A stretch of DNA of 64,000 nucleotides from Candidatus Bathyarchaeota archaeon (GCA_963775465.1 CAVZIW010000015.1:4217-68216); one strand, 5' to 3'; shown: positions 37,323-53,998, counted from the stretch's first letter. A program made the numbers and translations. Notes: generated by a model not told the origin, from the letters alone.

Positions 37323-37563
37323 TAAAATTAAACTGTGCCCTTGTTGGCTAATACGAGTTATGAATTGAGAATAATTATGAGGGCTCTTTATTTGATTTAT
37401 TTATTTTTGGTTGTGCGTGTTAAAGAATGATTGAAAATTGTTAAGGTGATAGAAAACGTGCGCTATTTTTCTAGAAATGTTTTGGCAAAAAGTGCTGTTG
37501 GCTAGATGTTATCACATACAGATTTATTCTGGCGAGTTAACGATTGCATAGAGGAACAACTAT

Positions 37564-39651
37564 TTGAATATGAATTTCTCAATTAAAGGAAAAAACTTTT
37601 TGATAGCTGCATTGCTAGTCGTGTTGATGGTTCTCAGCTCCTTTGCTGTATTCTCGCCAGTTTCTGCTTCTGCGCCAACACTCATGGATCCAACGACTAT
37701 ACCTAAATTCGAAAATCAAATAACAGGTGCACCGCCAGTCTATATTCCCCAGGTAATCCAAAACCCTGAGGGTAAAGGCATTGCGTACAGGTACACTGTA
37801 ACGATGGATGAACAAAACCAACAAGTCTTGCCGCCAGGATATCCTATGACTCCAGTTTGGGGTTACGGAGGATACGCTAAAGATGCCGTTACAGGCAAAT
37901 ACTTAGGTTACGTCTTAAACTCGCCAGGACCAAGCTTTGAAGCTAAAAGAGGAATCCCAACAGTTGTAAAATGGGTAAACAACATCGATGTACCATACAT
38001 GTTTCCAGTTGATCCAACTCTGCACTGGGCTAACCCAACGAACATTCCCATGATGACCGCAACCCAGCAAGCTGGACTTGGTCTAGCACCAACTTATCCA
38101 CCAGGATACAACGGTGTATCAATCGGCCTCACTAATCCAGAGGCTTGGAATGCTCAATCGCCTGTTCCGCTTGTGCCACACCTTCACGGAGGCGAAGTTT
38201 CATCACTATACGATGGAGGCCCAACCGCTTGGTGGACAAATGGCGGAGTAAGAGGCGAAACCTACAACAGCCTTTATCACACATCATCCAACGCAGCAGT
38301 CTACTACTATCCAAACGAACAGCCAGCTACTACCCTTTGGTACCATGACCACGCACTTGGCTTAACCAGAATAAATGTCATGTCAGGTCTAGCAGGATTT
38401 TATCTTTTACGCGATTCAGAAGACGCGTTAGGTAAGAACCTTCCAAGCGGAGCCTACGAAGTACCCCTCGCTATACAGGATAGAACATTCCAAAGCGATG
38501 GTTCATTCTACTTCCCCGCTGACGAAGCAACCAACCCAGATGTACATCCCTATTGGTCACCTGAATTTTTCGGAGACACCATAATGGTTAACGGCTTAGT
38601 CTGGCCAAACATGGATGTATCAAAAACGATGTACCGCTTCAGACTCTTAGACGGATCAAACGCCAGATTCTATACACTTAGCCTTGAAACTGACTCAGGC
38701 GAACCGGTAGAATTCACTCAGATAGGCACTGACGGAGGATACATGAAAAAAGCAGTAAAACTAACTGAACTAACTATTGCCCCTGGAGAAAGAGCAGACA
38801 TACTTATTGATTTCTCAGATCTAGCTCCTGGAACTAAAATTCTAATGAAGAACACTGCAAACGCCCCATTCCCTGATGGCGACCCAGTAGACCCCGAAAC
38901 TACAGGTCAAATTATGCAGTTCACGGTTACAAGAAAACATGTCCCGTATTCGCAACGACAGGATGCATGCCTAACAGAAGCTGCCACGAAACCCTACAAA
39001 ATCATAAACAATGACCTTAAAGGAGCATGGCCAACACTACCGGAACCAACCAACACAAGAACTATGACTCTATGGGAAGTCCAAGGAGATGGAGGCCCAC
39101 TTGAAGTGTTAGTTAACGGTCAAAAATGGGCTGCACCTGTCTCAGAGGATCCACAGGAAGGTTCAACTGAAGAGTGGGTAATTGTCAATTTGACTGGTGA
39201 TACCCATCCGATACATTTGCATCTGACCCAATTCCAACTCGTTGGACGTTACACATTAGCTGACCCAGATGCTTACGCCGCTGATTGGACAACGCTAAAC
39301 GGTGCAGAACCACCATACATGTTCACCCCAGAGGAACTTGACCCCTTCACCGATGGCAACTATATTGTTCCTGGATCATTCGTTGCGCCCGCAGCTAACG
39401 AACATGCCTGGAAAGACACCATACAGATGAATCCTGGAGAAGTTACCATAATTCGCGTTAGATTTGCGCCTATCGACGGATCAGCAAAGTATCCGTTTGA
39501 TCCTACAGAGGGTCCAGGATACGTCTGGCACTGCCACATTATAGACCATGAAGACAACGAAATGATGCGACCGTACATAGTGACACAAGCACCACCAACT
39601 CATCATCACTCAGGACCAAGATACCACAAATGGAACAATTGGAACTGCTAA
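37564..39651 (+). CDS. Secreted multicopper oxidase (CotA/bilirubin oxidase-like)
   Basis: All four Cu motifs present: PHLHGG, WYHDH, HPIHLH, HCHIIDHEDNEMM; signal peptide. Confidence 0.93.
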   Translation: MNMNFSIKGKNFLIAALLVVLMVLSSFAVFSPVSASAPTLMDPTTIPKFENQITGAPPVYIPQVIQNPEGKGIAYRYTVTMDEQNQQVLPPGYPMTPVWGYGGYAKDAVTGKYLGYVLNSPGPSFEAKRGIPTVVKWVNNIDVPYMFPVDPTLHWANPTNIPMMTATQQAGLGLAPTYPPGYNGVSIGLTNPEAWNAQSPVPLVPHLHGGEVSSLYDGGPTAWWTNGGVRGETYNSLYHTSSNAAVYYYPNEQPATTLWYHDHALGLTRINVMSGLAGFYLLRDSEDALGKNLPSGAYEVPLAIQDRTFQSDGSFYFPADEATNPDVHPYWSPEFFGDTIMVNGLVWPNMDVSKTMYRFRLLDGSNARFYTLSLETDSGEPVEFTQIGTDGGYMKKAVKLTELTIAPGERADILIDFSDLAPGTKILMKNTANAPFPDGDPVDPETTGQIMQFTVTRKHVPYSQRQDACLTEAATKPYKIINNDLKGAWPTLPEPTNTRTMTLWEVQGDGGPLEVLVNGQKWAAPVSEDPQEGSTEEWVIVNLTGDTHPIHLHLTQFQLVGRYTLADPDAYAADWTTLNGAEPPYMFTPEELDPFTDGNYIVPGSFVAPAANEHAWKDTIQMNPGEVTIIRVRFAPIDGSAKYPFDPTEGPGYVWHCHIIDHEDNEMMRPYIVTQAPPTHHHSGPRYHKWNNWNC

Positions 39652-39868
39652 ACACCGTTTTCTCAAAACAGAGGCTCTAGCCTTTATGGCTAGATTACCT
39701 TTCTTTTTTATTAAATCAGATAAACATTTTTTTGCTTTCAAGCAAGAAAAAGAGAGCGAAATAATCATGTTAATTCTTCTTGACTGAGCAAAGCTCTATA
39801 AATTCTAAAAACCTATTTTCTATAAGAACTACAATTTGAAAGTAGCAGTGATCAAAGCGCAGGATAGT

Positions 39869-40099
39869 TTAATTTGTGATTGTTACTTTTTCTTCTTTTG
39901 GAATCATCATGAGTTCTACGTTTTCATGTTTTGGTTGGGTTATGTTTGCTGGTTTTTGGTTTTTCTTGTTGTGGGGGTGCCCTATGTAGTAGAGGCTCCA
40001 GCCAACGGCGAATACGATTGCTAATGCCGGTGCAAGTAGGATTTTTGTAAGTTTGCTGCGGTGTTTTCTAGTGGTTGTTTTTTTCAAGTCTTTTCCCAT
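39869..40099 (-). CDS. Small single-TM hypothetical protein
   Basis: Basic N-terminus, LLAPALAIVFAVGWSLYYIG helix. Confidence 0.55.
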   Translation of the reverse strand: MGKDLKKTTTRKHRSKLTKILLAPALAIVFAVGWSLYYIGHPHNKKNQKPANITQPKHENVELMMIPKEEKVTITN

Positions 40100-40315
40100 G
40101 TCATATTACTTCGTAATTCTTAATATATAAGGTTTATTAATTTTGTGAAAACAAAAAACTGCAGTGAAACCAAAAAAAGAAAAAATAGCTGAAAAATAGG
40201 ACACACGCAAAATTTTTCTGCAAGGATTGTGATAATCAGATTCTATATAGTTATGTGTTCTCTAATAACAAAAAAGAGAGGGAATTTTTGAGGTTTGTTT
40301 TGTTAACTTTTTTTG

Positions 40316-42808
40316 TTAACGTTTTTTAAGCACCAGCAGAGCTAAGACAACTGCCACTATCACAATTGAGACAAATAAGCCTACGATTGCGGGAATGAAG
40401 TATGCGTCATATGTGGTTTGTAGGGATATTGCAGTAGGTTGTGGTGTTGTTGCGGGGGAGTCAACTACGAATGAGCTTGTTGCATGTGATGGCCAGTATG
40501 ATTCGCTGCCCGTGAATGATGCGTAGACGGTGTATTGGCCTGGTATGTCTGGTTGCCAACTGAAGGTAAAGAATCCGTCAGCGTCACTAGTGACATTTCC
40601 GATTTCTCTGGAGTTGCCATTAGTGTCAAGCACGCTAATTGAGATGGGAACGCCTTTGGTGTCAAATGGACGTTCAAACTGCATGTATACGTATTTCATC
40701 CAGTCGCTCATGCTTGCGTCAGATACTGCTGGAACTCCATTGGGAAAACGCATTGTCAAAGTTGCATCATTTGTGCCAGGTGAAACGTCTGTTATCATTC
40801 CTCGAATTACTAAGCTGTTTCCGAGAGTTATGCCGGTTGCTGGAGCGTCAACAATTGTTTGGCTGGGTCCTTTTCCTATTGCGTATATCCGTTGGTCGTA
40901 GGTATCCATTAATGCAATTATGCTGTCTCCGATCATTGCCTTTCCGCCCCAACATGTCTGTCGAAGGCCTCCATCTATCTTCCAAATGACATTTCCAGTC
41001 TCTATAGCCAGACATATGAATGGTGCGCCTCGTGGAAGCGGCTGGTTTGGCGAGTGTTCGACGTGTCCTAAGTATACCTTGCCGTCTGAAACTAGGACCT
41101 GTTGCATCCACCAGTTGTTGCCTATGGTAAATTCGGTGTTGAGGTCTTCAGCTGTGTAGTTCCAAAGTAAAGTTCCGGTTTTTGCATCGTAGCATCTTAT
41201 GTCTCCAGCTGCACCTGATGAAACGAGCTTGCCGTAGTTTATCGTGCTTATGCGGTCAAACATGTTAAGGTAGGTGTCTGGTGGTGAGGGTCCCCAGAGG
41301 AATTGCCCGTTGGTTAGATCGAAAGCATAGTAGTTCATGCATTCTTTTGAATTTAGTACTGCGACGTTGTCTGTTAGGCTTGCGGCTGCCCAGTTGATGG
41401 TTTGGTTTCCTTCCGCCCAAGACGATGGAGCGGTCCAAGCGGTATTGTAGAGTATCGATCCGATCTGTCCGTTTGATGAGTTCAGGTTTAGTGCCCATAT
41501 CTGTACGTTGGTAGCATTTATCGATGCACCGACTACTCTGTCAAGTGGATTTACAATCCGAACATTACCAGGTAGCGCTTTAGGGATCGTTACATTCCAG
41601 TCATAGCCCTTTGTTTGTGCGTCAAAAGTTCTGCCCCTGACTTGGCTGCCCCATGCAACTGCCATACCCGCATTGTTTTTAAGCACGACTGAAGAGGTGT
41701 TCCATTGTGCCAGCCATCCCGCATTTTGACTAATTGTGTACTTTAGAATTTCGCCATTGGGACCATAGTAGTTTGTGCCCGAAGGGACATTGGTCATGTT
41801 GTATTTCCAGTCGCCCGTTAAAGGTTCAAATGCATACCAATTTGTTCCGCTAGTTACCCATAGGTACGAGAAATCGCCTTGGTAGTTCATTGAGCTGAAT
41901 CGTAAAACTTGTCCGAAGGCTATTCTTCCGTTGCCGTAGTTAACTCCATTGTTAGCTAAGCTTTTAGTCCATAGTTCTTCTCCTGTGTGCAAATCGACTG
42001 CCACTACTGCTTGTTGTGGTTGACCTGAGTCGTATTTGTTGTAGAACATTACGCCGCTGATTATTACCCCGCCAAATTTGCCTTCGTATGCGTCGCCTAT
42101 GCCATATCCTGTTTCATCAACTCCGCCAGCTAATCCGCCCATTGTGTCTCCTACTGGTCTTGTCCAAAGTATGTGGGCGCTTTCTGGGGCATCTTGATCG
42201 GGTGCATAGAGGTTGTCTGACGGAAGTATGGGTGTTGGCACTAGCCAGTTGCCTGATATTGTATACCATTCTCTTAGTTGTTGATTTATTGGGCGCGACC
42301 AATATTCGCTGGGTAGGGCTTCTCCTGGATAGTATTGAATTTGGTCTTGTTGAACTTCAAGTGCTAGTTGTGGGCTGAAGCTTTCTTTGTAGAGCATCTG
42401 GGACGAGACTGGATTTCCGAAGAAGTCATAACCGGAGTAGTTGTACCATTGTTCAGGAAAGTGGGTCTTTAGGTAATAAGTTCCAACCTGCGTTGGAGTG
42501 TACAGAACTCCAGTGCCTCCTGTGGAGTCAGTCTTGTAGGGTCCAACAGTTTCAGTTGAGTTGTCTGGTTTTGTAACGATGACTGTTAAGCCTGTGAATC
42601 CGTCAGTTGCAGTACTTAATGCGTCGGGAATACCTACGTGGAGCATTACTGTCTGGCCCACTCCTACCGGGTTGGGCATAGCCCCGATATATGCGAAAGT
42701 TGATTTCGATGATGCTGCCGCGTTTGCAGGCAGAGTCGCGAATGGAAGTATCATAGTTAATACTAGAATCATTGTAATTATAGTTGCCATTTTTTGGTTA
42801 ATTTTCAA
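40316..42808 (-). CDS. PQQ-like beta-propeller surface protein, paralogue 3
   Basis: Same architecture; RFPNGVPAVSDASMSDWM; TM ending LVLKKR. Confidence 0.85.
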   Translation of the reverse strand: MKINQKMATIITMILVLTMILPFATLPANAAASSKSTFAYIGAMPNPVGVGQTVMLHVGIPDALSTATDGFTGLTVIVTKPDNSTETVGPYKTDSTGGTGVLYTPTQVGTYYLKTHFPEQWYNYSGYDFFGNPVSSQMLYKESFSPQLALEVQQDQIQYYPGEALPSEYWSRPINQQLREWYTISGNWLVPTPILPSDNLYAPDQDAPESAHILWTRPVGDTMGGLAGGVDETGYGIGDAYEGKFGGVIISGVMFYNKYDSGQPQQAVVAVDLHTGEELWTKSLANNGVNYGNGRIAFGQVLRFSSMNYQGDFSYLWVTSGTNWYAFEPLTGDWKYNMTNVPSGTNYYGPNGEILKYTISQNAGWLAQWNTSSVVLKNNAGMAVAWGSQVRGRTFDAQTKGYDWNVTIPKALPGNVRIVNPLDRVVGASINATNVQIWALNLNSSNGQIGSILYNTAWTAPSSWAEGNQTINWAAASLTDNVAVLNSKECMNYYAFDLTNGQFLWGPSPPDTYLNMFDRISTINYGKLVSSGAAGDIRCYDAKTGTLLWNYTAEDLNTEFTIGNNWWMQQVLVSDGKVYLGHVEHSPNQPLPRGAPFICLAIETGNVIWKIDGGLRQTCWGGKAMIGDSIIALMDTYDQRIYAIGKGPSQTIVDAPATGITLGNSLVIRGMITDVSPGTNDATLTMRFPNGVPAVSDASMSDWMKYVYMQFERPFDTKGVPISISVLDTNGNSREIGNVTSDADGFFTFSWQPDIPGQYTVYASFTGSESYWPSHATSSFVVDSPATTPQPTAISLQTTYDAYFIPAIVGLFVSIVIVAVVLALLVLKKR
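40697..40777. repeat. 81-bp perfect repeat shared with 52132-52212 (inverted orientation)
   Basis: Reverse complement is identical to 52132-52212; flanks have diverged. Confidence 0.85.
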
Positions 42809-42830
42809 TTTTTTGCTTTCTCCTTATTTA

Positions 42831-42964
42831 TTAAACGAGAGTATTTTCTAGAAATACAATCGTCAGAAGCAGAGTTTCTGTCTATTAGTTATTTAAAAAA
42901 GAGCCGTAAGTTTATCTTACGACAATGACAAGTTGATTCTAAAGCATTTGACACCTTAGTTATG
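42831..42964. repeat. Duplicated divergent-promoter block (homologous to ~45641-45773) containing CAGAA-N7-TTCTG
   Basis: Shared TTAAACGA, CAGAAGCAGAGTTTCTG (42864-42880 vs 45670-45686), TATTTAAAA, GAGCCGTAAGTT.ATCTTA.GACAA. Confidence 0.8.
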
Positions 42965-42993
42965 TCATTGGCAAGAAACTATTTTGAGGATTG
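42962..42993 (+). pseudogene. C-terminal remnant of a deleted TrmB gene
   Basis: Encodes MSLARNYFEDC vs VSLGRNYFEDC of the intact TrmB; 26/29 nt identical to 46518-46546. Confidence 0.7.
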
Positions 42994-43059
42994 TAAAAAA
43001 AGGGAAGGGTTGAGTTTTGTTTTTGTCTTTTTGTTATCGCTTTTTTACTGCTTGCAAGA

Positions 43060-45621
43060 CTACGAATCGCCGACTATTGCGATAGCAAGTATGATTGCTA
43101 TAACTCCGACGATTAGCGGGATTGTCAATGCGTTGGTTGTGTCGAGGGTTACTGGCTCCTGTGTTGGTTGTGTTATTGGGGCATCAATTACTGATGCATA
43201 AGTTGTGGCCCATGAGCTTCCGTAAGATTGGTCGCCTGCAAAGGTTGCGGTAATTTTGTATTGCCCTGCGATTTCGGGTGTCCATGAATAGCCGAAGTTG
43301 CCTTTTTCATCGCTAGTTACTGTGTCAAGGTGGAAGAAGTTGTTGTTGGGATCGATAACGTCGATTGAAACTGGGACGCCTGTGACTGTTACGTTGTGGA
43401 AGAAGCCATCGATTGGTCGTTGCATGTGCAGGAACTCCATGTACGTGGACATTGACTCTTTGGATACGCATGCTGCACCCGGTTGAGCTGGCGATTGATC
43501 TAAAATGGTGCCAGATATTATTGTTGTCTCTCCTGTAGGGATTGCTGTTTGTGGAGCGGAGACTGTTGCTTGGCTTTCTCCTTTACCGAACACGTACATG
43601 TAGCCGTCGTATTTGTTGTCGTATGTGAGGTATCCGTCTGCGACTGCTCCTGCTGAGCCTCCGCCTGAGATGTCCCATATGTATTCGCCTGTTGTTGCGT
43701 TAAGTGCCCAGAGTCTCCAGCCTCTTGCGAGGGGTTCTGTAGGCGAGTGTTCGCCGTTTGCGTAGTAGAGTATTCCGTTGGCGATTTGGGGTGAGTTGCT
43801 AAAGAGTGTACTTGAGGGGTAAGTTGCTGATTCAAAGGGCAGAGTTGGTGTTGAGTAGTGCCATACTATATCTCCTGTGTCCCAGTCTAATGCATAGAAG
43901 CCTGCGTATGAGAAGTCGTAGACTAAGCCACCGTAAGAGGCGATCGTGTAGGCTCCGAAGTCTCCCCACGGATATTCTGTTCCGCCTGTTTCACCTGGTT
44001 TAGCGCTTTGCCAGAGTAGTTTTCCAGTTTGTTGATCCCAGCAGTCCCACCATCCGCCGAGAACGCGTGTGGTGACTTTTCCGTGGTCTGCACATAAGCC
44101 TGTGGGGAAGAATATGTCGTTGGTCGTTACGTTCCAGAGTAGTTGGCCTGTTGTTATGCTTGTTCCCATTAGGAATTGGCCGAGTGTGTGTCCAGCGCCT
44201 GCTGGAACGATTGAGGCTGAACTTACGTCGATTCCTGTTTCATAATCGACTGAGCCTAGGCGGCTGAAGGGGTAGCTTATGTTGCTTATTATTCTGGAGT
44301 TGAAGTTTGTGCTTGTTCCTGTTGTTGTCCAGTTGATTAACCAGTTTTGGCCGCCGGAACTTGCCACGCTGAGAACGTATGGGTCTTTGTACATTACTCC
44401 TGAGGAAACTGGTAGTGAGATGTTTGCTTTTACTGCTCCGCTCCATGGGTCATATTTGATCATTCTTGAGGATCCTATGTATACTAGAGAGTATGTTCCT
44501 GTTCCCATTCCTGTTTGGTCTGCTCCTGGTACTGAGGTGCCTACTTCGTTGAAGGTGACAACTGTGGGTATTTGGGTTATGCCTGTTTGTTCCCAGTATA
44601 TTTCTCCTGTGCGGATGTCGTAGCATGTCCATGCGTTTGTGGTTTGTGTTACTGTGACGCCGTTTACTGTTGTTGTCATTGGTTTAGCTATGGATTGGTA
44701 TGCGCGGCCTTGGAATATGATGTTTGGTGTTCCTGCGTATGTTGATTCGCCGGGTCCAACTGAGCGGTATCCGAATTGTCCGCCGACAATGCCTGCGAGT
44801 GCGCCTTGTCTCATCCATGCGATGTGTGATGTTTCTGGTCCTTGGACGTATGGGGTGTATTTGTAGTTGCTTGCGTATGTGTTGGTGTTTGCTGGCCAAT
44901 CGGGTCCTCCGCCTACACCGGTGAACGGGTATTGTCCACCTATAAGATACCATTCACGGTCTTCGATTGGTATGGGGCGTGTCCAATAATCATTTGGTAA
45001 GGGTGCTGCTGGCCATGAATAGACCAAATCCTGCTGTACAGTTAGCGATACTTCTGGACTGATTGAGGCTTGATACCATGCAGACTCTAGGTTTGCTGGT
45101 CCGCCAAAGCCCATTCCGCCTGTGTTGGTTCCTGGTGGAAGATCTGCTGTAGTGGCGTAGTATATGCCGTTGTAGTACCATCCTGCTTGGAAGTAGTTGC
45201 CTGGGAAGTTAAACTTGAATTTGTATGTGCCTACTTGGTCGACGCTGTATTGGACCCATGCTGTTGAGTCGCCCTGGTAGGAACTTAGTGGTCCGATGGT
45301 TTCTGTGGCGTTGTTTGGTTTTGTAACTGTTATTGTGTATCCTGAGAAGAATCTGTTGTACTGCACTGGAGGTTCGAGCCACAGGTTGATAAGAACGGTT
45401 TGTCCTTGACCTATCGGGTTGGGGCTAATACTAATGAAGGCTGTAGTTGCAATCGTAACGTTTGGGGTTACTCCTTGTGGGGGGGAGGTTGGCCATGGTG
45501 TTAGTTGTGGTGCTCCTATCTGTTCAACTGCTGCATTTGTGGATAGAAAGATAGCTGAAGCTGACATTAACAGCAACGAAAGAAACATTAGTGCCATAAC
45601 TTTGTTCTTTATTTGTTTCAT
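43060..45621 (-). CDS. PQQ-like beta-propeller surface protein, paralogue 4 (C-terminal tail frameshifted)
   Basis: Same architecture; ends ...IAIVGDS*, while an alternative frame gives FVVLQAVKKR* (stop 43034). Confidence 0.85.
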   Translation of the reverse strand: MKQIKNKVMALMFLSLLLMSASAIFLSTNAAVEQIGAPQLTPWPTSPPQGVTPNVTIATTAFISISPNPIGQGQTVLINLWLEPPVQYNRFFSGYTITVTKPNNATETIGPLSSYQGDSTAWVQYSVDQVGTYKFKFNFPGNYFQAGWYYNGIYYATTADLPPGTNTGGMGFGGPANLESAWYQASISPEVSLTVQQDLVYSWPAAPLPNDYWTRPIPIEDREWYLIGGQYPFTGVGGGPDWPANTNTYASNYKYTPYVQGPETSHIAWMRQGALAGIVGGQFGYRSVGPGESTYAGTPNIIFQGRAYQSIAKPMTTTVNGVTVTQTTNAWTCYDIRTGEIYWEQTGITQIPTVVTFNEVGTSVPGADQTGMGTGTYSLVYIGSSRMIKYDPWSGAVKANISLPVSSGVMYKDPYVLSVASSGGQNWLINWTTTGTSTNFNSRIISNISYPFSRLGSVDYETGIDVSSASIVPAGAGHTLGQFLMGTSITTGQLLWNVTTNDIFFPTGLCADHGKVTTRVLGGWWDCWDQQTGKLLWQSAKPGETGGTEYPWGDFGAYTIASYGGLVYDFSYAGFYALDWDTGDIVWHYSTPTLPFESATYPSSTLFSNSPQIANGILYYANGEHSPTEPLARGWRLWALNATTGEYIWDISGGGSAGAVADGYLTYDNKYDGYMYVFGKGESQATVSAPQTAIPTGETTIISGTILDQSPAQPGAACVSKESMSTYMEFLHMQRPIDGFFHNVTVTGVPVSIDVIDPNNNFFHLDTVTSDEKGNFGYSWTPEIAGQYKITATFAGDQSYGSSWATTYASVIDAPITQPTQEPVTLDTTNALTIPLIVGVIAIILAIAIVGDS

Positions 45622-45770
45622 TTTTTTTCTCCTAACTTTTTTAAACGAAATATCTAGTGATATATCGTTCAGAAGCAGAGTTTCTGGGTATTACTTATTT
45701 AAAACAGAGCCGTAAGTTGATCTTATGACAAAAGCTAGTTTTAAAAGCATATCACGACATTATAGCAGCT

Positions 45771-46589
45771 ATGCAGCTATTCCCTGAGAACGATGATATC
45801 GGTTTTCTCTCAGAATTAGGGCTGAGCAACAACCAAATAAGAATATACCTCTCACTTCTCAAGATAGGTTCTCCAGCCAAAGCATTCATAATATATCAAA
45901 CTTCAGGTGTTCCACGACAAGATGTCTACCGAGTACTTTTTGAGTTGCAGCAACTCGGCATAGTTGAGAAAAAAATAGCAACACCAAACGAGTTTAGTGC
46001 CGTTGAACCCAAAAAAGCAGTTTCTATCCTAATCGAAAACAAACAACAGCAAATCTCTGAGTTGAGTTTTAAAGCAGAAATATTCTCCAGAAAAGCAACT
46101 GAACGCTACTGCAAGCTAAATCCGTTGCCAGATAAAGACCGGTTTACGCTGATTACGGAAAAGCAAGCAATAATACATACCATCAAAGAAGCCATTGAAA
46201 AATCACAAAAGATATTCTGTTTCATTGTTCCAAAAAGAGAATTCCTACAATGGTTAGCTGTTCTTTCTGAATCGTTAATTTTGATCAAAGACAAAAACAT
46301 AAAAGTTAGATGGATAACTCAAATGCCTGACCAAGCTGATGTTCCGAAAATTTATGATATATTAAAGCAAAATCATCATATTCAAATCAAATTCATTTCC
46401 AATACTGCTTCAGTGAAGTTCGCATTGTCCGATGAAAGCGAAATTGTGTTAGCTGTTTTAGAGGGAGGCAATTTTGCTGAGACTCCAGCTCTTTTGACCA
46501 ACAGTCCAGCGGTCGTATCGTTGGGAAGAAACTATTTTGAAGATTGCTGGACAAGGGGAAAAGATCTAAACACTATCAAACTGGTTTAA
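45771..46589 (+). CDS. TrmB family transcriptional regulator
   Basis: LSELGLSNNQIRIYLSLL...SGVPRQDVYRVL..L...GIVEK HTH plus C-terminal effector domain; divergent from paralogue 4. Confidence 0.88.
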   Translation: MQLFPENDDIGFLSELGLSNNQIRIYLSLLKIGSPAKAFIIYQTSGVPRQDVYRVLFELQQLGIVEKKIATPNEFSAVEPKKAVSILIENKQQQISELSFKAEIFSRKATERYCKLNPLPDKDRFTLITEKQAIIHTIKEAIEKSQKIFCFIVPKREFLQWLAVLSESLILIKDKNIKVRWITQMPDQADVPKIYDILKQNHHIQIKFISNTASVKFALSDESEIVLAVLEGGNFAETPALLTNSPAVVSLGRNYFEDCWTRGKDLNTIKLV

Positions 46590-46604
46590 CGTTGAATTTG
46601 TACT

Positions 46605-46869
46605 GAAAGGGTAGCTGCTTCTAAAAGGATAGCTGAGAAGATAAACTCTACTGAGAAAATAAATCCTCATGAATACGAAGAAGAACTTGAACAGAGAAAT
46701 CCCTAATGCTTTACCTAAACGCAAACGTCTTCATCTATGTAGCAATAAACGGCGAAGAGATTGGAAAACAATGATGAGATTATCCTAGAAATCGCTTAAG
46801 GACTTTTTTGATAAAGAACCTGACATTTACACAATTAAAGATATAAAAGCCGAGGTTAAAGGCGTTTGA
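46605..46869 (+). pseudogene. Start-less and stop-interrupted antitoxin-like fragments
   Basis: ERVAASKRIAEKI...EYEEELEQRNP* with no start; DWKTMMRLS*KSLKDFFDKEPDIYTIKDIK with in-frame TAG at 46786. Confidence 0.4.
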
Positions 46870-46929
46870 AAAGTTGCTTTAGAATAACTTATAACCTTCC
46901 GGTTCCTTATCGGTACCTGGTGAGTTGCT

Positions 46930-47139
46930 ATGGCTGAAACAGTTTCAATTCCTCGTCCGCTATTAAAAGAGCTCTACGAACATTTTGACAGAATAGAGGA
47001 GATTCTAGCTACATTGGAAGAGCTTTCAGATAAAAAAGGGCTAAAGAGAATTGAAAGAAGTCTTGAAGAATACAAAAATAAAGAATGCGTTACCCTCTCA
47101 AGTTCTGAGAAAATCAGAGAAGCCCTCATGAAGGACTAA
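46930..47139 (+). CDS. Putative RelB-like antitoxin
   Basis: 69 aa; IEEILATLEELSDKKGLKRIERSLEEYK; directly precedes a RelE-like fragment. Confidence 0.6.
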   Translation: MAETVSIPRPLLKELYEHFDRIEEILATLEELSDKKGLKRIERSLEEYKNKECVTLSSSEKIREALMKD

Positions 47140-47141
47140 GT

Positions 47142-47267
47142 TTGCAATACAAGACGATTTTCACCAAAAGCTTCAAAAAGGAATTTCGTAAAATTCCAAA
47201 AGGCATCCGAGAGATTATTCTTAAGACTCTGGAAAAAACAATAGTAAATAAAGTCACGTTCCGATAA
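47142..47267 (+). pseudogene. Truncated RelE/ParE-like toxin (41 aa)
   Basis: MQYKTIFTKSFKKEFRKIPKGIREIILKTLE matches the RelE N-terminus and then stops. Confidence 0.65.
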
Positions 47268-47298
47268 GGAAAGCTGGATTAACTCGATTGATGGTTAG

Positions 47299-48678
47299 AT
47301 GAATCTTCCTAGAATAATCATTGCGGGCGCTCAGAGCGGAGTGGGTAAAACAACTATTTCTATAGGGTTGATGAGTGCACTAAAGGATGCGGGCTTCAAC
47401 GTTCAAGGATTCAAGGTGGGTCCAGACTACATCGACCCAAGTTATCATAATGTCGTAACTGGACGCCAATCCGAGAACTTGGATGTTTGGATGGTGCCGC
47501 CAGATCAAATCGTAGAAGTGTTTCTTCGTGCAACAAGGGATGCCGACTTCGCTGTTATCGAAGGTGTTATGGGTCTTTACGATGGACTTAGCGGGTTGGA
47601 TGAGACTGGGAGCACCGCGCAGATAGCAAAAATCCTAAGGTGCCCCGTAATCTTAGTTATCGACGTTCATGATATGGCTAGAACAGCTGCTGCAGTTGCA
47701 TTGGGCTACAAGAACTTCGATAAGGATGTCAACATTGTAGGAATCATTCTAAACAATGTTGCCGGCAAAACTCACGCGGCATGGTGCAGGGAAGCAATAG
47801 AGGCAATTGTGGGAATACCCGTAATCGGTTCATTGCCCGTCAACAAAGAAATCGAGTTGCCACAGAGGCATCTGGGTCTTATCCCGACAGCAGAAAAAGA
47901 AACCTTCAATTCATTCTTTCCCAAAATTAAGGATTTCATTCGAACCCACATAAACATGGATGCGGTCATTAAGGTGGCAGAGTCAGCTGGAGAAATGCCG
48001 CAAGTCCAACACCCAATTTACCCAAAAAGAAATCATAATAAAAACGTCGTGGTCGGCGTGGCTTTTGATGAAGCATTCAACTTCTATTATCCTGGGAATC
48101 TTAGCCTTCTTGAAGCGTATGGGGCAGAAATCGTTCGATTCAGCCTAATCCACGATAGAGCACTTCCCGTTGGTGTTGAGGGATTGTACATTGGCGGTGG
48201 TTTTCCCGAAATGTTGCTCAAGGAACTGGAGGCAAACCAGAGCATGCGTGAGGACATAAAGAAAGCGGCTGAAAACGGCATACCCATCTATGCTGAATGT
48301 GCTGGATTAATGTATCTCACTGAGTCGATAACTGATTTCGATGGAAACAGCCATAAAATGGTAGGTTTCTTGAAGGGCAAAACAGTCATGACCCAAAAAA
48401 CGTTGGTTACCTACTCCCTCGCAGAAGTCAGCCGCGACAATTTGCTCTGCAAAGCAGGAAGCCAGTTGAAAGGTCATGAGTTCCATAACTCAAAAATTAT
48501 TGACATTGCTGCTGATGCACAATTTGCTTATATCATGAAAATGGGCGAAGGGATAATAGACAAAAAGGAAGCATGGATGCAATACAACGTTTTAGCATCC
48601 TACATGCACATTCACTTTGCCCAAAACCCTGAAATCGTCGTAAACTTCCTTAAGAATTGTAAAAAACACAAACGATGA
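47299..48678 (+). CDS. cbiA: Cobyrinate a,c-diamide synthase (CbiA/CobB; CfbB paralogy not excluded)
   Basis: SGVGKTT, FKVGPDYIDP, IEGVMGLYDG, AECAGLMYL, HEFH, YMHIHF. Confidence 0.88.
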   Translation: MNLPRIIIAGAQSGVGKTTISIGLMSALKDAGFNVQGFKVGPDYIDPSYHNVVTGRQSENLDVWMVPPDQIVEVFLRATRDADFAVIEGVMGLYDGLSGLDETGSTAQIAKILRCPVILVIDVHDMARTAAAVALGYKNFDKDVNIVGIILNNVAGKTHAAWCREAIEAIVGIPVIGSLPVNKEIELPQRHLGLIPTAEKETFNSFFPKIKDFIRTHINMDAVIKVAESAGEMPQVQHPIYPKRNHNKNVVVGVAFDEAFNFYYPGNLSLLEAYGAEIVRFSLIHDRALPVGVEGLYIGGGFPEMLLKELEANQSMREDIKKAAENGIPIYAECAGLMYLTESITDFDGNSHKMVGFLKGKTVMTQKTLVTYSLAEVSRDNLLCKAGSQLKGHEFHNSKIIDIAADAQFAYIMKMGEGIIDKKEAWMQYNVLASYMHIHFAQNPEIVVNFLKNCKKHKR

Positions 48679-48734
48679 TCTGGTCTGTGTGGAATTTGTT
48701 GTTTACTTTTAAAACAGGTATGTTCGATTAACAA

Positions 48735-48950
48735 GTGTTATATACTGTCTCAATACATACTATTCCTAAAGAGGCGAGGTTAAACTTTATGGAATCACAA
48801 TTAGCGGTTTTTAGAAACCAGGAAGCAGCAGAACTCTTCAACTACATAGTAAGTTACACTCGCTTAATCGCTGAAAAACATCCCCAAAACGAAGAAACCT
48901 GCAACATAACGCTCGAAGTTATACCAGAAGAACAAAAAATAACTGTATAA
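48735..48950 (+). CDS. Small hypothetical protein
   Basis: Probable ATG at 48789 after GAGGCGAGG. Confidence 0.45.
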   Translation: MLYTVSIHTIPKEARLNFMESQLAVFRNQEAAELFNYIVSYTRLIAEKHPQNEETCNITLEVIPEEQKITV

Positions 48951-49998
48951 TTATCAAATTAGCATGGCTGGGTTAGGTATATTTTTTTTATTTCTACCTT
49001 CTGCGAGAGGCAGATCATTTTTATGTAAACTTTTTTTGACAACTTTCATGTAACTGATTACTCAGACATTTGCTGCTTTTTTCAGGATTATTCAAAGTTA
49101 AGTTCCTTTAATTATGATAATTGAGGCAAGCTTTGCTTGCCTTCTTCTTCCTGTTTCTAGAGCTTGTTTGTGACAGAACACTTTCACTTTGAAAATATAT
49201 ACCCCCAGCGTTGATAAAAAAATTACCATTTTAGAAAAATGTTGTTGAAAAGTTAGAAATTATTGTATGATTTCTTGATTGAAAGCGAGATTTTTTTGCT
49301 GAAGATTTGAACGCTTTCTTTGATCGAATGGTTGGCACTGACAGAACCGAAGTTGGAGAAGACAAACAATCAAAAACTATAATCAGAGAAATGGGCTCAA
49401 TTGATTTTGTGGGTATATGATAAATAAGATAGTAATACCCAATTATTTGTTGACTGAAATAAAAAAAGAAGTTGGGATTTGGAAATTTATTTTTATGTCA
49501 CTATGTATGGTCGTCTCATTTCGTTGTCTTCATGGTTGATGATATGGCAGTGCCAGACGAAAGACAAGGTGCAAGGCAAAACTACTGCCGCCAGCGCGCG
49601 CTGACAAAAAGACTAAGGCTCCGAAAATTATAGAAAGTAATTAGTAAGCCCATGGATTAATTTTTGTCGAAAAAAGAAATTAAAATAATAATTTTTCTCC
49701 TTCAAGTTCAATTAGGGGGTTCGCCCCCAACCAACTTAAGCGTTAATGTAAGTTCAACAGATCTAGAGGTATTTTAGCCAACAATTTTAGCTTTGGCGCT
49801 ATCATTATTGTGTGTTGGCGCATTGGTCAGAAATCGAAATAACCGTTATAATTTAAAATAAAAAGCTCTTAACATCTCAGTAATATTTGCCTATCTCAAT
49901 TCTTTAATCTAAATAAACTATATTAACCCTGAAGAATAATTTTTATTGAGCACTATTTTTTCATCTTTTGCTCAAAGAATATCGTGAGAAAGGAAAAA

Positions 49999-52590
49999 AT
50001 GAAAGAATTAAAAATTGTGTTATCAAGAGCTATTGCTTTACTTCTAATATTCGCAATTGCACTACCAATTTTCGCAATGCAAACCACAAGTGCACAAAAC
50101 TCCAATGTCAAAACCTATCCTTTCATAAACGCCACACCCAATCCAGTACAAGTAGGAACCGAAACCCTACTACACCTCGGTATAACACGTCCACTACTCT
50201 TTGCAACCCAAGGCTGGACAGGACTAACTGTTACTGTAACAAAACCTAACAACACGACCCAAACTCTAGGTCCATTCACAACAGACTCAACAGGAGGAAC
50301 AGGCACAGTTCTAGTCCCTGACGAAGTAGGAATCTACTATCTGCAGACAAATTTCCCAGCTCAATGGTTTAACTACACAGGATCCGATGGTCGTGGAGGT
50401 CAAGTTTCTGTTTCAGTATATGCAGAAGCCGGAACAAGTGAAAAAATACCTCTAATAGTTCAGGAAGAACCACTACAATATTGGCCAGGCGTTCCGCTTC
50501 CAACTGAATATTGGTCAAGACCAATAGACTCACAAGCCAGAGAATGGAATACCATCAGCGGAAGCTGGCTAGATACAAACCGTAGAAACCCATCCTACAT
50601 GCCTTACAACAACGGCCCCGAAACTGCACACGTCCTATGGACTAGACAAGAAACAACCGGTGGGCTCGTCGGAGGAGCACTCGATAACGCTTTGACTCTG
50701 AGTGATAACTCATACGAAATGGGCGACGCATACGAAGGAAAGTTTTCAAGTCGTCTAATTATCGACGGAAAACTAATTTACAACGTCTACGCGGGTCCAT
50801 CCATCGGTGCTGTAGATAATCGAAGAGAATACGCCTGCATTGATATACACACAGGAGAACTGTTATGGTCCAGAGTTTTGTTAAACAACTTAACATTAAG
50901 CCGCGGACAAACGATGTACTGGGATACTTATGACTTCCACGGAGTCTACGACTACATTTGGGCAACCGCCGGGTCTACATGGTACGCCTTTGATCCATTC
51001 AACGGCGATTTAGTATACACCCTAACCAATGTACCCTCAGGAACAGTCACTTACGGACCAAAAGGCGAAATTCTAATATACACAATCAACTTGCGCCAAG
51101 GCTGGATGACATTATGGAACTCAACAAACATACCCGAACTATACGCCAACACAGAAGCAGGTTCAATGGGATTTGCCCAGTGGAGACCTTACCAGAAAAC
51201 CATCGACGCACAAGAACCAATCAGTACACCATTCAACCCAATAGGATTAACAGGCTATATGTGGAACAAAACAATACCAACAGCTTCTGTTGGGAGCGTA
51301 AACTACATCTACCCAACGGACCGAGCCATCTGCACTGATTTAGTTACACCCTTCCCAGGACCAGTATCAAATTCCGTCACAGAAATTACATCATGGGCAA
51401 TTGACCTATCCATTGGACATGAAGGAGCACAACTATTCAAAGAAACTTGGACCGCACCAGCTTCATGGGTTGAAGGTAACCAAACTGTAGTATTTGAGGC
51501 GATCAGCCCACAGAGCACAAATGGAGTCTTCGTCTTAGGAGCACGAGACGACCGACAACATTACGGATTTAGCACTGAAACAGGAAAATACCTCTGGGTA
51601 ACTGAACCAGAAATCTACCTAAACTGGTACGGAGCAGGCGGCATCGGTGGAGAACGACCACCTCAGATCGCTTACGATACATTGATGACAACAGGAATCG
51701 GAGGAATAATCTACGCATATGATACTACGACAGGGCAGAGAATCTGGACTTACAACGCAACAGACGATTACCAAGAAACATTGTTTGCAAACAACTGGTG
51801 GATGTATCCAGTGTTCATCACCGACGGAAAAATCTACTACGGCAGCCTTGAGCACTCCCCAGTCAATCCAATTCCTCGAGGCGCACCATTTTTAGCGCTA
51901 GACGTGAAAACCGGCCAAGAAGTGTTCCGAGTAAACGGTATGTTCCGACAAACCCTCTGGGGCGGTCTCGCAATAATCGGCGATAGCATCATAACGACAC
52001 AAGACACATACGACTGCCGTATATACGCAATAGGCAAAGGTCCAAGCGCCACAACACTCTCAGCACCCAGCAGCGGCGTTAAATTAGGCGATAACATAGT
52101 ATTGTCCGGAACCGTAAACGACATATCACCCGGCACAAATGATGCAACTTTGACAATGCGTTTTCCCAATGGAGTTCCAGCAGTATCTGACGCAAGCATG
52201 AGCGACTGGATGCTCTATGTTTACAAACAGTTTGCACGCCCAATGAACGCTTTAGGCGTTGATGTCACGCTAAGCGTTATCGACTCAAACGGGAACTTCA
52301 GAGAAATCGGTTCAGCAACAACCACTGATGGCTTTTTCGCATTGAACTGGAAGCCAGACATAGAAGGACAATACACTGTCTACGCCAACTTCAACGGCAC
52401 AGAATCCTACTATCCCTCATATGCTCTTGCCTCATTCACAGTAGATCCAGCCCCAACATCGCAACAAAGTACTCAAACACCAGGTAACAACGACACCGTC
52501 ATGGCAATTACCTACGCTGCAATCGCAATAATAATTGTCATAATCCTTGTTGGAGTAGTATTAGTACTCTTACTCAGAAGACGCCCATAA
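49999..52590 (+). CDS. PQQ-like beta-propeller surface protein, paralogue 5
   Basis: Same architecture; TM ending LLRRRP; ATG 49999 after AAGGA. Confidence 0.85.
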   Translation: MKELKIVLSRAIALLLIFAIALPIFAMQTTSAQNSNVKTYPFINATPNPVQVGTETLLHLGITRPLLFATQGWTGLTVTVTKPNNTTQTLGPFTTDSTGGTGTVLVPDEVGIYYLQTNFPAQWFNYTGSDGRGGQVSVSVYAEAGTSEKIPLIVQEEPLQYWPGVPLPTEYWSRPIDSQAREWNTISGSWLDTNRRNPSYMPYNNGPETAHVLWTRQETTGGLVGGALDNALTLSDNSYEMGDAYEGKFSSRLIIDGKLIYNVYAGPSIGAVDNRREYACIDIHTGELLWSRVLLNNLTLSRGQTMYWDTYDFHGVYDYIWATAGSTWYAFDPFNGDLVYTLTNVPSGTVTYGPKGEILIYTINLRQGWMTLWNSTNIPELYANTEAGSMGFAQWRPYQKTIDAQEPISTPFNPIGLTGYMWNKTIPTASVGSVNYIYPTDRAICTDLVTPFPGPVSNSVTEITSWAIDLSIGHEGAQLFKETWTAPASWVEGNQTVVFEAISPQSTNGVFVLGARDDRQHYGFSTETGKYLWVTEPEIYLNWYGAGGIGGERPPQIAYDTLMTTGIGGIIYAYDTTTGQRIWTYNATDDYQETLFANNWWMYPVFITDGKIYYGSLEHSPVNPIPRGAPFLALDVKTGQEVFRVNGMFRQTLWGGLAIIGDSIITTQDTYDCRIYAIGKGPSATTLSAPSSGVKLGDNIVLSGTVNDISPGTNDATLTMRFPNGVPAVSDASMSDWMLYVYKQFARPMNALGVDVTLSVIDSNGNFREIGSATTTDGFFALNWKPDIEGQYTVYANFNGTESYYPSYALASFTVDPAPTSQQSTQTPGNNDTVMAITYAAIAIIIVIILVGVVLVLLLRRRP
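52132..52212. repeat. 81-bp perfect repeat shared with 40697-40777
   Basis: GGCACAAATGATGCAACTTTG...GAGCGACTGGATG. Confidence 0.85.
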
Positions 52591-52785
52591 AAACAAAAAC
52601 CATCCCTCTCTTTTTTTGTTAAACCTCAATATCTCATCAAAAAATAGTTCAGTCTGCTTTTATCATACTTGACTCCAACATTCTTGTATTTTATTCTAAA
52701 AACTGAAGACAAAAGTCTAAGCTTTTTATTTTTAGCAATTTAACTATTCTTAAATAACCGACAAATCAATTTTAACTAGATCAAT

Positions 52786-53585
52786 TTGATGAAGCGGCAC
52801 TCTTCTGTTGCAACTGCAATTATTGTTACCGTTTTAATTTCAATATTACTTAGCATGACCACAGACTCAATAGCATGTTCAACTGCGATCAATATAGATT
52901 GGGAACTCACCATAACAGGCCTAGTTGATAACCCTTTAAATTTAAAAATAGCTGATTTAATGAATATGCCGCAGACCAGCCTTTTCGCACAAATATACTG
53001 TGTTGGTCCCCCAGGGTTTTTTGTCGAGGAAGGCAATTGGACAGGAGTTAGACTTAGCTACCTTCTGGCCCAAGCTGGGGTTGACCCTTCTGCAATCAAG
53101 ATTGCTTTCTATGCTACTGATGGATTCTCCACAGACCTCACTCCAGAATTGGCGATGGATAGTGGCATTGTAGTGGCCTACGAAAAAAACGGCTTGCCTC
53201 TCGATGAAACACTTCGTTTAGTAGTTCCGGATAGATGGGGATACAAATGGATTTATCATCTTACCAGAATCGAAGCTGTAAACTATAATTTCCTGGGTAG
53301 GTATGAGAGCCAAGGTTACTCAGACACTGCTCTTACGACAATGAGTGGTGGACCTGGAGATGTTGGAGACCAACTGCCAAACCCAACTGCTTTAACAACT
53401 AGGACTCCTTCTCCGACTCCGATCAGTTCCCTAGTTATTCTCCAACTCCAAGCAGTTCTCCTAGTAATTCTCCAAATCCATCCCCTGCAATTCCAGAGAT
53501 TTCATCCTTCACAATTTTGTTCTTACTACTTTTTTTGTTACTTTTTGTAGTCATTCTTAAGTATCGAAAACAACATTTCCTTTGA
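52786..53585 (+). pseudogene. Secreted molybdopterin-binding (sulfite oxidase/MsrP-like) domain protein with frameshifted PEF-CTERM-like anchor
   Basis: IYCVG, WTGVRL, LRLVVPDRWGYKW; a 1-nt deletion at ~53429 removes SPAIPEISSF-TM-KYRK (stop 53585). As sequenced, the ORF ends at 53550. Confidence 0.75.
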
Positions 53586-53746
53586 TTGTAAAGTTTTTAT
53601 TTGTTGCAAAATTCTACGCGTCTGTTTTCCTTCTTACGTATCGTGGAATTAATTCTGCGGTCCATAGAAAAAAAGCATTCAACACAAGAAAAAGGTATAT
53701 GTTTATTGTTCACGAAAACCCGAAAACTTGTTTTCATGAGTATTAT

Positions 53747-53998
53747 TTATAGAGCGCGTTTTTGCAGGTTAGTGTCTGAAAGGGCAATAGTCCTCATAAC
53801 GCCTCTAAATCTCGCAGAACAACTCCTACATCGTTTCTGATTTGCAGGAATTTCCCGCCACTTTGGAGTCTTTGCTCGCGCTGACAGTTTCTTTCCACAA
53901 TCACAACAGTAATATTTTGCGGGTTTTTCCCTAATCCCAATAACTTGCAAGTTGAAAAATAAATGAGGAGAAATCAGTACTAAAGAAAATAAATACAT
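53747..53998 (-). CDS. Small zinc-finger-like hypothetical protein
   Basis: CCDC...CRSC with a basic spacer. Confidence 0.45.
   Translation of the reverse strand: MYLFSLVLISPHLFFNLQVIGIREKPAKYYCCDCGKKLSARAKTPKWREIPANQKRCRSCSARFRGVMRTIALSDTNLQKRAL

Follow-up and report, generated by a model that had tools for sequence, protein, structure and literature searches.

The stretch analyzed here (the window) comprised 64,000 nt from a Candidatus Bathyarchaeota archaeon (contig C15:4217-68216 of genome G000) and carried five paralogous surface-protein genes, P1 to P5. Two of them, P3 and P5, were inverted relative to each other, about 11 kb apart on one chromosome, and shared an identical tract of 81 nt. 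This tract very probably goes back to one recent event of gene conversion, non-reciprocal and without crossover, in which 69-81 nt of P5 were copied into P3. G000 was a metagenome-assembled genome (MAG) of 2.42 Mb in 15 contigs, with a completeness of 92%.

An identical tract in two inverted paralogues

The reverse complement of 40697-40777 in P3 was identical to 52132-52212 in P5 at 81 of 81 bases, and the tract lay in frame in both open reading frames (ORFs), where it coded for GTNDATLTMRFPNGVPAVSDASMSDWM. The perfect identity and the single synonymous mismatch before it, which the original prediction had read from the sequence, were both recovered; the mismatch was a CCT/CCC difference in a Pro codon on the 5' side of the tract (40778 vs. 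52131), beyond which five further bases, TCACC, were identical. The diagnostic sites set the minimal extent at 40703-40771 (69 nt) and the maximal extent at 40697-40777 (81 nt), and the switch points fell within the hexamers GGCACA and TGGATG, which were common to both genes. Across the whole 2.4-Mb genome, no copy of the 81-mer was found besides those in P3 and P5, the next best matches being 79-87% identical over sub-segments. Gene-wide, P3 and P5 shared 48% of their protein sequence and 57% of their DNA, with the same codon at 49% of the identical residues.

In the tract, all 23 informative codons were identical, for which the probability was ~1e-8 from the synonymous part alone at a background of 0.455. 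A GENECONV-type comparison, the check named along with the original prediction, was performed in permutation form on 30 full-length, codon-aligned G000 paralogues. P3 and P5 agreed at 68 polymorphic sites in a row, while in 300 column permutations the longest run reached 21 in this pair and 30 among the 431 divergent pairs.

Identity might also be maintained in both genes at the nucleotide level, by an RNA element, a recombinase site or a regulatory target, and the tract does belong to the most conserved protein block of the family. In the other 434 paralogue pairs, however, identical residues used the same codon at a frequency of 0.455 in the columns of the tract, compared with 0.437 over the whole gene, which indicated no synonymous constraint in this block. 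The ORFs in or next to the interval included no recombinase gene. Furthermore, the orthologues of P3 and the more distant orthologue of P5 were 68-79% identical in the tract. Shared identity in distant orthologues had been put forward as the sign of constraint, yet the tract was absent from the P3 orthologues and alleles (L123, L124, G058, G013, G050 and P0001-P0008), and the P5 orthologue L045 reached just 79%. This indicated conversion and not constraint, whose probability we regard as close to nil; both chance and nucleotide-level constraint were excluded as the source of the identity.

Orthologues, direction and age

The sister genome G022, which typically has 92-96% DNA identity to G000, contained a P5 orthologue that was 97.8% identical throughout the gene and differed from P5 by one synonymous site in the tract (AAT/AAC). 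No P3-type site was present in P5, as expected of a non-reciprocal transfer. The more distant orthologue L045 (72% protein identity) read GTQEYALTARFPNGVPAVSDESMSDWM, with QEYALTA in place of NDATLTM. This indicated that NDATLTM is a derived state of the P5 lineage of G000 and G022.

On the P3 side, a database search returned P3-clade proteins with 93, 86, 77, 76, 75 and ~70% identity, and all eight proteins between 70 and 93% carried GT..YAL.ARFP instead of GTNDATLTMRFP. The closest allele (93% protein identity) was located on a JGI metagenome contig, L123, which had the same TrmB-P4-P3 arrangement as the window and 89% DNA identity to it over 6.7 kb (39869-46570). Of the 69 bases that precede the first P5-type site, this allele shared 68 with P3, and it shared all 35 after the last (~97% in the flanks), while 26 of the 81 positions inside the tract differed. 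The P3 orthologue of G058 (76% identical) differed from P3 at 24 diagnostic sites in the tract. This orthologue (L043, G058:C7 8836-11193) also showed a frameshift near residue 390, due to either pseudogenization or a sequencing error. Exact matches to P3 and P5 were not found in other assemblies, for which a different choice of start codon may account.

The phylogenetic signal changed at the tract borders, where the tract grouped with the P5 clade and its flanks with the P3 orthologues. In the quartet of P3, L123, P5 and the G022 orthologue of P5, all 26 supporting sites inside the tract placed P3 with the P5 clade and none with its own allele; outside the tract, 879 sites joined P3 with its own allele and 70 with the P5 clade (Fisher P = 2e-28). 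When the G058 orthologue was used, the corresponding counts were 0 and 24 inside, and 607 and 173 outside (P = 7e-16). The claim of the original prediction that dispersed surface-protein paralogues had recently undergone gene conversion was therefore borne out by the complete identity of the tract against 57% gene-wide, by the permutations and by the quartets.

P3 and P5 had no difference in the tract, and the P5 genes of G000 and G022 differed by 2.2%. The conversion is thus probably younger than the split of these two P5 genes. Identity to the window on the left side of the locus was 88-91% for L123 and 79-86% for G022. Since L123 was the nearer of the two here and its P3 allele had no tract, P3 appears to have acquired the tract after P5 already had this sequence. 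Taken together, the presence of the tract in P5 before the G000/G022 split, its absence from the nearest P3 allele and the lack of any difference in 81 nt point, by parsimony and with high confidence, to P5 as the donor and P3 as the recipient. Recent lateral exchange, as a source of the 96.6% identity between the P5 region and G022, was rejected: other loci were 92-96% identical, and it was the left segments of 79-86% that were divergent.

In G022, the segment corresponding to window 40281-46414, with P3, P4 and most of the TrmB gene, was missing, and no P3 orthologue was found anywhere in this genome. A stub of 136 nt from the 3' end of TrmB was kept (83% identical to 46415-46550). This indicated that the cassette of surface genes and TrmB was deleted in G022.

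Several points weigh against the conversion of P3 by P5 as described. P3 may instead have been the donor in a common ancestor, with G022 later losing its P3, a less likely alternative that needs more steps; had the event taken place at the time of the split of the G000 and G022 P5 genes, the probability of finding no difference would be ~0.06-0.17. The homology around the tract was far below the usual need of bacterial RecA-type recombination, which leaves room for a template switch. Moreover, the sequences of P3 and P5 are a MAG consensus, and the assembly was taken on trust. This assembly contained ~3.6 kb of pure A/T homopolymer runs (A..., T..., A...; G000:C1:35638-39243), a block that almost certainly arose as an artefact and suggests that the assembly was unusual or made from long reads. 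Contig ends also overlapped, C8:139898-146745 with C10:1-6843 at 96.6% (6.8 kb), and C6:311190-316754 with C10:101553-106865 at 99.5% (over 5 kb); some contig ends in the MAG are probably redundant or derive from strain variants.

With a homopolymer block and near-duplicate ends in a 15-contig MAG, it could be asked whether the P3 consensus was locally overwritten by P5 during assembly or polishing, or whether the contig is a strain chimera. Native P3, however, differs from P5 at 26 of 81 positions in the tract and at ~45% in the flanks, so that P5 reads would not prefer P3, and no k-mer path would lead from the P3 flanks to the P5 tract unless it was real. In addition, the patch was in frame with clean junctions, and independent assemblies, among them the complete Ca. 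Bathyarchaeum tardum genome, had similar identity islands at this position of the gene. An artefact is therefore judged very unlikely.

Pathway of the transfer

The most likely route would be recombinational repair. A break or gap in P3 may have been repaired with P5 as the template, by synthesis-dependent strand annealing or gap repair with the archaeal RadA machinery, and repair may have been seeded in the most conserved block of the family. Native P3, as represented by L123, shared with P5 a single perfect match of 17 nt, AATGGAGTTCCAGCAGT, with ~68% identity in the tract and ~55% in the flanks. Such low homology would be compatible with the short-patch, divergence-tolerant recombination of Sulfolobus acidocaldarius (PMC3367456).

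The same values, low for canonical homologous recombination, could also be explained by a microhomology-mediated template switch during replication or break-induced replication, in which the nascent strand would have jumped to P5 at GGCACA and returned at TGGATG independently of RadA. Both junctions did lie in 6-nt microhomologies, and the two copies were inverted. With 26 diagnostic sites in 81 nt, though, any endpoint is forced into a short shared interval, and the microhomologies are uninformative. A distance of 11 kb is also far for switching within a fork, and archaeal homologous recombination has been reported to produce short patches from moderately diverged DNA (PMC3367456). We consider the template switch, which would leave the same P5-templated patch in P3, a serious but less likely alternative to recombinational repair.

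Crossover and inversion

The original prediction had proposed that the tract might be a crossover point for swapping variable N-terminal parts onto a constant anchor, a means of mosaic diversification, or a site at which recombination would invert the ~11 kb in between. Inverted repeats inside surface-protein genes would suit a programmed system of this kind, in which the tracts would serve as joints for exchanging ectodomains or flipping the segment, and identity islands recurred at the same relative position in other Bathyarchaeia. The patch was short and internal, though, and P3 and P5 each retained their own sequence on both sides of it, which indicated that no crossover took place; on either side of the tract, P3 aligned collinearly with L123 and G058, as did P5 with its G022 counterpart. 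Nor was diversification apparent: the patch lay in the most conserved block of the family, where it homogenises the two genes instead.

Inversion between the two copies is right in principle, but the segment order and orientation of the window agreed with those of G022 and L123, and the comparison of relatives revealed no inverted product. G022 was collinear with window positions 32.8-37.4, 39.87-40.28, 46.42-46.55 and 49.82-53.76 kb, and L123 with 35.96-37.43, 39.87-46.57 and 48.69-48.97 kb, with an alignment gap at 46571-48690. The segments of the multicopper oxidase (37430-39868) and of CobB/CbiA (46571-48690) were missing in the collinear L123, which reflects either insertions here or deletions there.

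No silent cassettes were found, and no recombinase was encoded among the ORFs of at least 100 aa at 37-54 kb, which comprised a multicopper oxidase, P3, P4, TrmB, CbiA, P5 and a molybdopterin oxidoreductase. Cassette-based antigenic variation did not fit, as donor and recipient were full-length ORFs with their own upstream regions and the tract belonged to the most conserved block. A site-specific invertible segment or shufflon did not fit either, as no recombinase adjoined the segment and the relatives G022 and L123 were collinear.

The anchor was not specially homogenised. In trees of 30 paralogues from G000 and 15 from G003 (a complete genome of the same genus), the N-terminal part (1080 columns) required 4 changes of genome label against ~12.8 when shuffled, and the C-terminal part (149 columns) of the same 45 paralogues gave the same values. 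Concerted evolution limited to the C-terminal anchor module was rejected, given that both trees clustered equally by genome. A programmed system of diversification or inversion is thus highly improbable, and the conversion event seems to have had no programmed function.

Protein architecture and effect of the patch

P3 is predicted to be a membrane-anchored beta-propeller surface protein. In its AlphaFold model (mean predicted local distance difference test score, pLDDT, 78), a signal or transmembrane helix came first, then an N-terminal beta-sandwich at residues 33-153, the propeller at ~210-645, a second, C-terminal beta-sandwich and finally a transmembrane helix (801-828). The first strands of the C-terminal sandwich were modelled at 649-674 and the remainder at 721-783, with a helical insert at 677-709 between them. 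The tract corresponded to this insert of the membrane-proximal sandwich, where the pLDDT was 78-90. The closest solved folds of the propeller (Foldseek) were BamB, YxaL and tetrathionate hydrolase, all generic 8-bladed PQQ-type propellers; a sequence search of the PDB yielded only a weak filamin match.

Compared with the L123 allele, the patch changed eight residues (E→N, T→D, Y→A, A→T, G→T, A→M, E→A and A→D). The native GTETYALGA..E...A was thereby turned into GTNDATLTM..A...D in P3, and both genes remained intact and in frame.

Locus and paralogue family

The features of the locus are listed in Table 1. Each of the five paralogues in the window combined a propeller of the PQQ_2 type with a C-terminal Ig-like domain and a membrane anchor, also C-terminal. 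In the paralogue alignment, the GTNDATLTMRF segment was missing from P4, the gene located between the two copies of the tract.

Table 1. Paralogues, intervening genes and tract copies in the window (positions counted from its first nucleotide).
Feature	Position	Strand	Remarks
P1	2956-5751		Paralogue in the window
P2	29966-32590		Paralogue in the window
P3	40316-42808	-	830 aa; Pfam PQQ_2, Big_3_5, CarboxypepD_reg; AlphaFold; Foldseek
Converted tract, putative recipient (P3)	40697-40777	-	P3 residues 678-704; maximal extent, 81 nt
P4	43060-45621	-	Paralogue between the two tracts; uninvolved in the conversion
TrmB-family regulator	45771-46589	+	Pfam TrmB 1.3e-13; divergent from P4; between the tracts
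CobB/CbiA-type cobyrinic acid a,c-diamide synthase	47299-48678	+	Pfam CbiA, GATase_3; between the tracts
P5	49984-52590	+	868 aa; inverted relative to P3; collinear with G022 at 96.6% (window 49820-53763)
Probable donor tract (P5)	52132-52212	+	P5 residues 717-743

A hidden Markov model built from the five window paralogues matched 38 ORFs in G000. The far weaker 38th match (E = 8e-22) was left out, and the 37 copies kept, some of them fragmentary, represented ~4% of the genome. At least 15 copies were present in G003. The clustering of paralogues by genome pointed to lineage-specific expansion and turnover, which suggested that the family evolves mainly by lineage-specific birth and death. 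A literature search on published work about beta-propeller paralogue families of Bathyarchaeia gave nothing relevant. One syntenic family member (G000:C1:191261-193750 vs. L047 on G022:C28) had 66% DNA identity between flanks of 92-95%; it was either replaced at its locus or diverged very fast.

Other repeats were found near the paralogues. A direct repeat of 88 nt with 81% identity occurred upstream of P3 (42847-42934) and upstream of P4 (45653-45740), and a ~40-nt copy of the TrmB 3' end was located at 42965-43004. Both would fit a duplicated cassette of surface gene, promoter and TrmB. Upstream of P5, in 1.3 kb of otherwise non-coding DNA, a remnant of 23 residues (WHCHIINHEDNEMRRPYIVT...) was encoded on the minus strand at 49496-49564. 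Its identity to the multicopper oxidase (37564-39651; residues 652-674) was 83%, and it is what is left of a second oxidase gene.

Other identity tracts and a possible hot spot

A second candidate conversion was detected in G000, where two neighbouring paralogues with 61% protein identity shared an exact tract of 116 nt in the C-terminal anchor region (C3:101577-101692 and C3:106782-106897). Further exact tracts of 47, 42 and 38 nt were found between other divergent G000 paralogues. In other assemblies of Bathyarchaeia, islands of 100% identity occurred at the position of P5 residues ~700-780: one of 104 nt in the complete Ca. Bathyarchaeum tardum genome, where the two genes are convergent neighbours, one of 173 nt in A05DMB-2, and several of 134-182 nt across four genes in SRP185410_co2_368. 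The paralogues carrying them were 62-65% identical at the DNA level.

At least four independent genomes thus had islands of 81-182 nt at this relative position, between paralogues with 53-65% DNA identity. This raised the idea that the conserved hinge block (P5 residues ~700-780, RFPNGVPAVSD.SMS.WM.YVY.QF and its neighbours) is a recurrent hot spot of conversion across Bathyarchaeia. If so, the recombination system would tolerate far lower homology than the bacterial RecA type. However, the loci were retrieved partly by the peptide pattern DWMLYVYK, which lies inside the block, and the apparent hot spot is therefore in part a matter of ascertainment. In G003, which was sampled without this bias by whole-protein similarity, exact tracts of 40-119 nt fell mostly within the C-terminal fifth of a gene or in non-coding DNA next to it, and not specifically at the motif. 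We regard the hot spot as rather doubtful.

Comparison with known systems

The P3/P5 tract is a fresh example of a well-known process and is confirmatory, not surprising. Its value lies in a clean natural case of ectopic gene conversion, with direction and age resolved, from Bathyarchaeia, an abundant and almost uncultured archaeal class. It shows that even a patch of this small size can be transferred between paralogues of just 57% identity, which bears on the homology tolerance of archaeal recombination and on the evolution of large surface-protein families. In practice, trees and domain-level orthology assignments for the P1-P5 family can be led astray by patches of this kind. The finding would gain in interest only if Bathyarchaeia in general proved to have the hot spot and a low requirement for homology.

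Surface or adhesin gene families that exchange segments by conversion include babA/babB of Helicobacter pylori and pilE/pilS of Neisseria. In these systems, variable regions are converted, and Neisseria uses silent promoterless cassettes to generate antigenic variants. The case described here likewise involved surface-protein paralogues, but both partners were full-length genes and the patch lay in a conserved membrane-proximal segment.

Ectopic gene conversion between chromosomal paralogues is known from tufA/tufB of Salmonella, where it has been modelled as double-strand-break repair and is blocked by sequence differences (PMC5485169). As in the tuf genes, a contiguous tract was copied non-reciprocally between paralogues on one chromosome, with native sequence on both sides. 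Unlike the near-identical tuf genes, P3 and P5 are 57% identical, and the tract of 69-81 nt was limited to their most conserved block.

Among archaea, short conversion patches have been described in homologous recombination of moderately diverged DNA in Sulfolobus acidocaldarius (Mao and Grogan 2012; PMC3367456). The two cases have in common an archaeal recombination system which makes short patches from moderately diverged DNA; however, the former concerned DNA transformed into pyrE of a cultured crenarchaeon, whereas the latter appears to be a natural intragenomic event, deduced from comparative sequence in an uncultured lineage. In polyploid Haloferax volcanii, intermolecular gene conversion equalises the genome copies (PMC8223754, PMC11276520). 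Efficient non-reciprocal transfer in an archaeon is shared with that system, but in H. volcanii it acts on allelic copies of a polyploid chromosome, and in G000 it would have acted on diverged paralogues at different loci.

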